Below, in pieces: positions 13,228 to 15,144 of a stretch of DNA of 64,000 bases. The notes beneath the pieces are model-generated. The model saw nothing but the letters and a program-made list of their open reading frames with translations, had not been told where the DNA came from and made no database searches. The position numbers were made by a program, and so were the translations under genes. This stretch comes from a plasmid. Numbering within the stretch: the first letter of the stretch is position 1; every line of letters begins with the position of its first letter. Location of the stretch: the NCBI RefSeq assembly GCF_053078305.1, contig NZ_CP166875.1. One strand, 5' to 3'.

Positions 13228-15144
13228 ATGGATCAGGTTATGAAAGAAAAGATAAATACCTTTTTCAGGTCTCTGAATGTTAATGACTCCGGAAGACCGC
13301 GCAATATTTGTGCAATTGTTTTTTTCCTGAGCTTTTCTGTATTTGCCGACAGCAACAGTGATTACCGGGCAGGTTCCGATTTTGCCCGTCAGATCCAGGG
13401 GCAGGGTATTGGCAGTATTCAGAGTTTTAATCCGCAGGAGAGTATCCCCGGGTATAACGCGAACCCGGATGAGACGCAGTATTACGGTGGGGTGACTGCC
13501 GGCGGGGATGGCGGTCTGAAAAATAACGGCACCACACAATGGGCAACCAGTGAAACCGGCAAAACCATCACAGAGTCATTCATGAACAAGCCGAAAGACA
13601 TTCTGTCACCGGATGCGCCGTTTATTCAGACCGGCAGGGATGTGGTGAACCGGGCTGACAGTATCGTGGGAAATACCGGACAGCAGTGCAGTGCGCAGCA
13701 GATAAACCGCAGTGAATTCACAAACTATACCTGTGAACGTGACACGATGGTGGAGGAATATTGTTCCAGGACAGCCAGGATCACAGGAGACTGGAAATAC
13801 ACGGATGAATATCGTGAGGTGACGATACCGCACTCACAGTTCCGGTTCAGTATGAACGGTCTGAAACTGGTGTTCAGCGTTACCGTACCTGTTGCCGGGA
13901 CAGTGGAAAGTGCCTCGCTGTCGGCTCATGCAGGGCTATATTTCCTTAACTCCCGTTACGACTTTATGAACACAGCCTTTAATGTGCAACTGGTTACAGG
14001 ACAGAGCGGGACTTTCACCATACCTGTGCCCTCCGGGTTTTCTGTCACACAGGGGCAGGTTCTGACCGGTAGTGGCTGTACTGCAAACGGTAATTGCCTC
14101 CCGCACGGGAATGGTGACAGGATGGTCTATGAATCGCTTGTCAGTGGTGCTTCCACCTTTACGCTGAAACTCAGGATGAAGGTCCGTGATAAGGAATGGG
14201 TTCCACGGGTGGAGTGGGTGGAGAGTTGTCCGTTTAATAAAGCGGATGGCGTGCTGAAAGGCACTGAGTGTTCAGAGCCGGGTGGTACGAAAACGGGTGT
14301 GATGGAAGGTAAAACCTGGAGCATCACACAGGCGTGCTGGGCATACCGGGATAAATATGTCACACAGTCCGCAGATAACGGCACCTGTCAGAAATATGTC
14401 GATAATCCGGCCTGTACGCTGGCCTCACGTCAGTGCGCGTTTTATTCCGATGAGGGAGCTTGTCTGCATGAGTATGCCACGTACTCCTGCGAGTCCAGAA
14501 CGTCCGGAAAAGTGATGGTCTGTGGTGGTGATGTCTTCTGCCTTGACGGTGAATGCGACAAGGCGCAGAGCGGAAAAAGCAGTGATTTTGGTGAGGCAGT
14601 ATCACAGCTGGCTGCGCTTGCCGCCGCAGGTAAGGATGTTGCCGCCCTGAATGGTGTGGATGTCAGGGCTTTCACGGGCGAGGCGAAATTCTGCCGTAAG
14701 GCCGCAGCCGGCTTCAGTAACTGCTGTAAGGATGGTGGCTGGGGTCAGGATGTGGGTTTGGCGAAGTGCAACAGCGAAGAAAAGGCGCTGGGAAAGGCAA
14801 AGGACAACAAACTGACGGTGAGTGTGGGCGAGTTCTGCTCCCGGAAAGTGCTGGGTGTCTGTCTGCAGAAAAAGCGCAGTTACTGCCAGTTTGATTCGAA
14901 GCTGGCGCAGATAGTCCAGCAGCAGGGGCGTAACGGGCAGTTGCGTATCGGGTTTGGCAGCGCAAAAAGTCCTGACTGCCGGGGAATAACCGTGGATGAA
15001 CTGCAGCGTATTAAGTTCGACCAGCTGGACTTCACTAACTTCTACGAAGACCTGATGAATAACCAGAAAATCCCGGATAATGGTGCGCTGACCGAAAAAG
15101 TGAAAGAGCAGATTGCCGGTCAGCTGAAACAGGTGGGGCAGTAA
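13228..15144 (+). CDS. traN: TraN outer-membrane mating-pair stabilisation protein
   Basis: 638 aa, Cys-rich C-terminal half closely matching F TraN, divergent middle region. Confidence 0.9.
   Translation: MDQVMKEKINTFFRSLNVNDSGRPRNICAIVFFLSFSVFADSNSDYRAGSDFARQIQGQGIGSIQSFNPQESIPGYNANPDETQYYGGVTAGGDGGLKNNGTTQWATSETGKTITESFMNKPKDILSPDAPFIQTGRDVVNRADSIVGNTGQQCSAQQINRSEFTNYTCERDTMVEEYCSRTARITGDWKYTDEYREVTIPHSQFRFSMNGLKLVFSVTVPVAGTVESASLSAHAGLYFLNSRYDFMNTAFNVQLVTGQSGTFTIPVPSGFSVTQGQVLTGSGCTANGNCLPHGNGDRMVYESLVSGASTFTLKLRMKVRDKEWVPRVEWVESCPFNKADGVLKGTECSEPGGTKTGVMEGKTWSITQACWAYRDKYVTQSADNGTCQKYVDNPACTLASRQCAFYSDEGACLHEYATYSCESRTSGKVMVCGGDVFCLDGECDKAQSGKSSDFGEAVSQLAALAAAGKDVAALNGVDVRAFTGEAKFCRKAAAGFSNCCKDGGWGQDVGLAKCNSEEKALGKAKDNKLTVSVGEFCSRKVLGVCLQKKRSYCQFDSKLAQIVQQQGRNGQLRIGFGSAKSPDCRGITVDELQRIKFDQLDFTNFYEDLMNNQKIPDNGALTEKVKEQIAGQLKQVGQ

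Follow-up and report, generated by a model that had tools for sequence, protein, structure and literature searches.

An R100-1-type TraN-alpha tip in the traN gene of an IncF plasmid, with OmpW as its predicted recipient receptor

Tip-swap chimaeras have established that the tip of TraN determines the outer-membrane receptor engaged on the recipient (Low et al., 2022; PMC9246713). The R100-1 and pSLT tips lead to OmpW dependence (PMC9246713; bioRxiv 10.1101/2023.02.09.527952), while those of F, pKpQIL, and MV1 use OmpA, OmpK36, and OmpF, respectively (PMC9246713). Besides the alpha tips of R100-1 (alpha1) and pSLT (alpha2), the TraN classes comprise beta (OmpK36, pKpQIL type), gamma (OmpA, F), and delta (OmpF, MV1/MV3 type), a classification that was kept in a 2026 paper by the Low et al. 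group. The alpha1 and alpha2 tips accept different OmpW alleles, and the OmpW of Citrobacter rodentium is accepted by alpha2 but not by alpha1, with one loop-3 residue being responsible (bioRxiv 10.1101/2023.02.09.527952). The surface domain of pSLT TraN has been solved as PDB entry 8X7N, whose chain A equals the pSLT TraN tip in sequence, and the structure paper handles the protein as an OmpW-binding TraN (PMC11297345).

The window analysed here is a plasmid stretch of 64,000 nucleotides (contig NZ_CP166875.1), in which traN is an intact open reading frame at 13228-15144 on the plus strand, encoding 638 aa when taken as the longest frame in the ORF list. The ATG at 13240 is a likelier start than 13228, because a weak GGA-containing Shine-Dalgarno-like motif lies 5' of it and none precedes 13228; the PGAP start for the identical gene in NZ_CP045714.1 is the ATG equivalent to 13240, which gives a protein of 634 aa. 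The F_T4SS_TraN profile (PF06986) matches aa 344-588 of the product with an E-value of 3.7e-78 and 262.9 bits (cut-off 23). The genes are ordered trbC-orf126-traN-trbE-traF, and the tra gene order of the window agrees with that of F and R100 (MPF-F tra operon). The coding features, numbered on the 638-aa frame, are as follows.

12116-12769, plus strand: trbC, upstream operon neighbour (Pfam PF09673, E=2e-19), annotated in the near-identical plasmid NZ_CP045714.1
13240-15144, plus strand: traN, coding for 634 aa when read from the likelier ATG (Pfam PF06986), 100% identical to WP_044192464.1
13348-13779, plus strand: N-terminal conserved base of TraN (aa 41-184), 87.6% identical to F and 92.4% to R100
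13780-14202, plus strand: variable tip of TraN-alpha type (aa 185-325), with two extra cysteines in a CTANGNC loop
14203-15144, plus strand: Cys-rich C-terminal base (aa 326-638) and stop codon, 82.7% identical to F and 95.5% to R100
15158-15415, plus strand: trbE, downstream operon neighbour (Pfam PF11100, E=3.8e-14)

Compared with F TraN (NC_002483.1), the window protein is 68% identical overall (BLASTP), and this identity is distributed very unevenly. In a nine-sequence alignment, aa 41-185 are 87.6% identical to F, aa 186-325 only 20.0%, and aa 326-638 82.7%, the last segment reaching 95.5% with R100; at the DNA level, the tip stretch is 33-47% identical to F. A preliminary description of this sequence had placed a region divergent from F at roughly residues 170-330, and the alignment bears this out with a block at about 185-325. 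The same description took the middle region to be the one that sets the recipient receptor, which agrees with the coincidence of the block with the TraN tip defined by the chimaeras (PMC9246713). Its statement that the C-terminal half is nearly identical to F was, however, overstated, as this part is 83% identical to F and closer to R100. The first 40 residues, comprising the predicted signal peptide, are unlike F as well, a feature absent from that description. The window protein shares with F TraN the operon position and the conserved base (88% N-terminal, 83% C-terminal), and differs from it in the tip and in an additional cysteine pair.

To classify the tip, we aligned it with the seven reference TraNs of Low et al. 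2022 (PMC9246713) and with TraN of pKF3-140 (NC_013951.1, WP_000821866.1). For R100 the record NC_002134.1 was used, and not the R100-1 sequence DQ364638.1 of Low et al. Codon 301 of traN in this R100 record (15887-15889) is an in-frame stop, where the window encodes Glu; the codon was masked for comparison, and one alignment ended before it. This stop codon probably explains the missing traN CDS in the RefSeq R100 record. Over aa 186-325 the window tip is 97.9% identical to pKF3-140 (alpha-like), 82.9% to R100 (alpha1), 44.3% to pSLT (alpha2), 20% to F (gamma), 14-16% to pKpQIL and MV2 (beta), and 23% to both MV1 and MV3 (delta). The 638-aa frame contains 25 cysteines, of which 24 remain once the leader is removed, the same number as in R100-1 and pSLT and two more than the 22 of F (counts for the three references from the header of Suppl. 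Table 2, PMC9246713). At least 20-22 conserved cysteines are expected of an F-type TraN, and across 87 aligned TraN homologues the cysteine positions are conserved without exception or nearly so. The Cys-rich beta-hairpin insertion that gives TraN-beta a longer tip and 27 cysteines is absent from the window protein in the alignment. The beta class was rejected on this absence, on the tip identity, and on the 24 cysteines, and the gamma and delta classes were rejected on their tip identities. A new fifth class was rejected as well, in view of the 83% identity to R100 and of the structural match described below. When only the tip was used as query, a word-indexed protein search gave mostly fragments and frameshifted pieces, but it showed that intermediate alpha-type tip alleles with 48-81% identity exist.

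A phmmer search of PDB sequences returned 8X7N chain A as the sole significant match of the window TraN (E=6e-22, residues 194-320), whereas F TraN had no match among PDB sequences at E<=1. Predicted structures were compared as well. An AlphaFold2 model of the window TraN, built on the 87 homologues, has a mean pLDDT of 83 and values above 90 throughout the tip. Superposition by Foldseek of the modelled tip on 8X7N_A gave a target-normalised TM-score of 0.92 and an rmsd of 1.5 Å at 43% identity, compared with 0.68, 3.6 Å, and 17% for a control model of F TraN obtained by the same procedure. As the F control fits far more poorly, the superposition test tells alpha from gamma; the F model resembles 8X7N at the general beta-sandwich level only. 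The window tip shares its fold with the pSLT crystal structure (window model against crystal) and also a series of motifs (ITGDW, FSVT.P..GT, NSR..FMNT.FN, the C..NG.C loop, and TFTL), but the two are only 44-49% identical, and pSLT has two short deletions. By sequence and predicted structure, the window tip is TraN-alpha of the R100-1 type. The middle region is hence an already described variant, which the preliminary description had overlooked as such: alignment to the described TraN variants assigns it to TraN-alpha and separates it from F.

Taken together, we consider it probable that the product of the window traN is a functional mating-pair-stabilization adhesin of F type that belongs to the TraN-alpha class (R100-1 sequence type) and whose tip binds OmpW of the recipient. 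The analysis shows what the gene is, where it stands in the operon, to which tips its own is homologous, and which structural class is predicted for it, and OmpW as the receptor would follow from the published work on the R100-1 and pSLT tips. TraN would be exported and then anchored through its Cys-rich base in the outer membrane of the donor, with the beta-sandwich tip (aa 185-325) pointing outward and binding OmpW on the recipient surface, and this binding would stabilise the mating junction after pilus retraction. Since the tip resembles that of R100 and not that of F, conjugation should need OmpW of the recipient and be indifferent to OmpA. A specificity unlike that of F, with OmpW in place of OmpA, would be the expected outcome, and the mating specificity other than F that had been predicted from the divergent region gains support by homology from the likeness of the tip to R100 and pSLT in sequence and predicted structure.

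Within the tip, sliding nucleotide identity and Nei-Gojobori estimates delimit a segment that departs from R100:

13888-14067, plus strand: recombinant patch (aa 221-280; gene nt 661-840)

The DNA of this patch is 66-70% identical to R100, while its flanks are 90-100% identical. In the pairwise comparison with R100, the patch has a dS of 1.18, a dN of 0.26, and an omega of 0.22, against a dS of 0.08-0.47 in the flanks. Such a pattern is typical of an old allele acquired through recombination and not of recent diversifying selection. Positive selection in the patch was rejected, given the low pairwise omega and the saturated dS, which an imported old allele fits better. Most of the beta-sandwich strands of the tip fall within the patch in the AlphaFold2 model. 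In sequence, the patch keeps the alpha-wide core motif NSR..FMNT.FN.

At the trbC/traN junction, breakpoints in blastn comparisons with the F, R100, and pKF3-140 loci define a second departure, which includes the atypical leader of TraN recognised by hydropathy scan and alignment:

12733-13344, plus strand: replacement segment of 612 bp
13240-13347, plus strand: predicted atypical signal peptide of 36 aa

The segment stands in place of 84 bp at the same junction of F, R100, and pKF3-140, and contains the end of trbC, an ORF of 126 aa (orf126, 12766-13146), and the new TraN leader. No Pfam match was found for orf126, which is 52% identical to an ORF between TrbC and TraN in AP014954.1 (K. oxytoca, MV2 plasmid). 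The full 612-bp segment occurs in 144 PLSDB records and its orf126 part in 689, and we thus regard it as common. In the nine-sequence alignment the leader shows no similarity to the reference TraN leaders (about 10% identity). A hydropathy scan indicates an unusually long, charged n-region of about 22 residues, followed by a hydrophobic core of 14 residues, ICAIVFFLSFSVFA (aa 23-36). The predicted cleavage motif VFA|DS coincides with the conserved start of the mature protein, the cut being placed in front of DSNSDY as in F, and the mature N-terminus DSNSDYRAGSDF is common to the TraNs of the window, F, R100, and pSLT in the alignment.

A leader so unlike those of other TraNs, with its long n-region, could be taken to mean that TraN is decaying or poorly exported since the 612-bp replacement removed the native signal peptide. 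The frame is intact, however, the hydrophobic core and the V-F-A motif stand at the conserved mature N-terminus, the same arrangement is retained in 144 PLSDB plasmids, and nearly all PLSDB records that match traN are typed conjugative. A pseudogene or an export defect was judged unlikely on the intact frame, the plausible predicted signal peptide, and these 144 plasmids, and a decaying or poorly exported TraN strikes us as barely credible. Counterpoints to a functional OmpW-binding TraN are this atypical leader, the place of some plasmids with the window allele just under the 90% cut-off of the census, the difference between alpha1 and alpha2 in the OmpW alleles accepted, and the patch, where 21 of the 60 residues in the beta-sandwich core (aa 221-280) differ from R100. 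In principle, the divergence of the patch could reshape the binding face, such that a receptor other than OmpW (e.g., OmpA, OmpF, OmpC, or LPS) would be bound even though the fold is of the alpha type. Yet the pSLT tip, which is much further from R100, still gives OmpW dependence (PMC9246713), and the model of the window tip, which has 83% identity to R100, superimposes on it. A change of receptor is therefore very improbable, if slightly less so than a failure of export.

Use of OmpW by the window tip would also be compatible with a finer change, in which the patch alters the OmpW alleles or species accepted and the tip becomes a narrower, E. coli-focused sensor than that of R100-1. With 35% of its amino acids changed across most of the beta-sandwich strands, the patch would be a candidate for such an effect, and its distribution is in line with this: among 205 PLSDB records with the window-type patch, 192 are Escherichia (94%) and 7 Klebsiella, as opposed to 907 and 343, respectively, of the 1412 records with the R100-type patch. 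There is also the precedent of the single loop-3 residue by which alpha1 and alpha2 differ on C. rodentium OmpW. The skew (Fisher p=7e-15) is suggestive but confounded by plasmid lineage and by sampling, i.e., by the sequencing of Shiga-toxin-producing E. coli (STEC) under surveillance on the one hand and of carbapenem-resistant Klebsiella on the other. Moreover, the seven Klebsiella plasmids with the window-type patch include pKF3-140, and the pairwise omega does not point to positive selection on the patch. As alpha1 and alpha2 already differ in the OmpW alleles accepted, the patch may bring a difference in fine specificity. On balance we find a narrowed, E. coli-focused tip unlikely, and it is equally doubtful that the window-type patch marks a distinct functional alpha sub-isoform that recognises E. 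coli OmpW and transfers poorly to Klebsiella or other genera that R100-1 reaches.

The window protein can further be set beside the TraNs of R100/R100-1 and pKF3-140. With TraN of R100/R100-1 it shares the domain plan and the 24 cysteines, but the 60-codon tip patch is only 65% identical, the signal peptide is unrelated, and orf126 is extra in the window. TraN of pKF3-140, whose tip recurs in about 200 further PLSDB plasmids, has nearly the same tip (97.9%), patch included, but carries an ordinary leader of the F/R100 type without orf126, and its N-terminal base and 3' end have only 75-90% DNA identity to the window. Because a pKF3-140-like tip is thus combined with a divergent N-terminal base and 3' end, the window traN is a mosaic.

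The variant itself is already known, as the exact 634-aa protein is in public databases (WP_044192464.1, annotated TraN) and the allele is in the published census. Its traN DNA is at least 99% identical in 31 PLSDB plasmids, most of them from E. coli of human faecal, bovine, or ovine origin, O178:H19 and O22:H8 strains included. In Suppl. Table 2 of the census, plasmids with the window allele are 89.6-90.4% identical to R100-1 TraN, 67.6% to F, and about 78% to pSLT (PMC9246713); we obtained 89.9% over 614 aa against the R100 record. As the census requires at least 90% identity to R100-1 TraN for the R100-1 (alpha1) sequence type, NZ_CP027367.1 and NZ_CP015239.1 are listed among the R100-1 group rows, and NZ_CP027580.1, NZ_CP028383.1, and CP024291.1, just below 90%, are among the unassigned remainder (PMC9246713). 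We attribute this division of one allele mostly to the foreign signal peptide and the recombinant patch, and a comparison of the tip only therefore classifies the window allele better. A third R100-like tip sub-allele (about 94% DNA identity) is present in 441 PLSDB records; those sampled were from Klebsiella, and one of them carries an inserted gene for an HNH endonuclease ahead of traN.

Beyond traN, the transfer region of the window is also R100/F-like. TraS (22591-23094) shares 75% identity with its R100 counterpart, and no match to F TraS could be detected; entry exclusion should therefore differ from F as well. TraX (32620-33366) is only about 65% identical to the TraX proteins of F, R100, and pSLT, compared with 90-98% for neighbouring tra proteins. 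The last 128 nt of traU (9497-9624) are duplicated with 95% identity at 11416-11543, 1919 nt downstream, and the two copies flank an insert of 1.9 kb that separates traU from trbC, where F has only a few bases. This insert holds small, partly hydrophobic ORFs (9611-10180, 10909-11355, and 11570-11902) with no Pfam matches. Positions 33000-64000 comprise an IncF backbone and cargo, with the following genes.

33853-34410: FinO
37712-38581: IncFII RepA
43629-46667: Tn3-family transposase
50750-52768, minus strand: ParB
58172-59143, minus strand: DUF1281 protein
60172-61446: ImpB/UmuC-like polymerase
61857-62891, minus strand: ParM

No PLSDB record spans at least 80% of positions 33000-57000, and this mosaic is therefore absent as such from PLSDB.

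The TraN tip type helps to predict which species an IncF plasmid enters efficiently. Assigning the window plasmid to the OmpW-using alpha class is in this respect a useful annotation and adds no new biology. Should the window-type patch prove to be a functional sub-isoform after all, the host range of IncF plasmids would be shaped by recombination of tips below the level of the class in addition to the four structural classes, and those affected would include the IncF plasmids of Shiga-toxin-producing E. coli.
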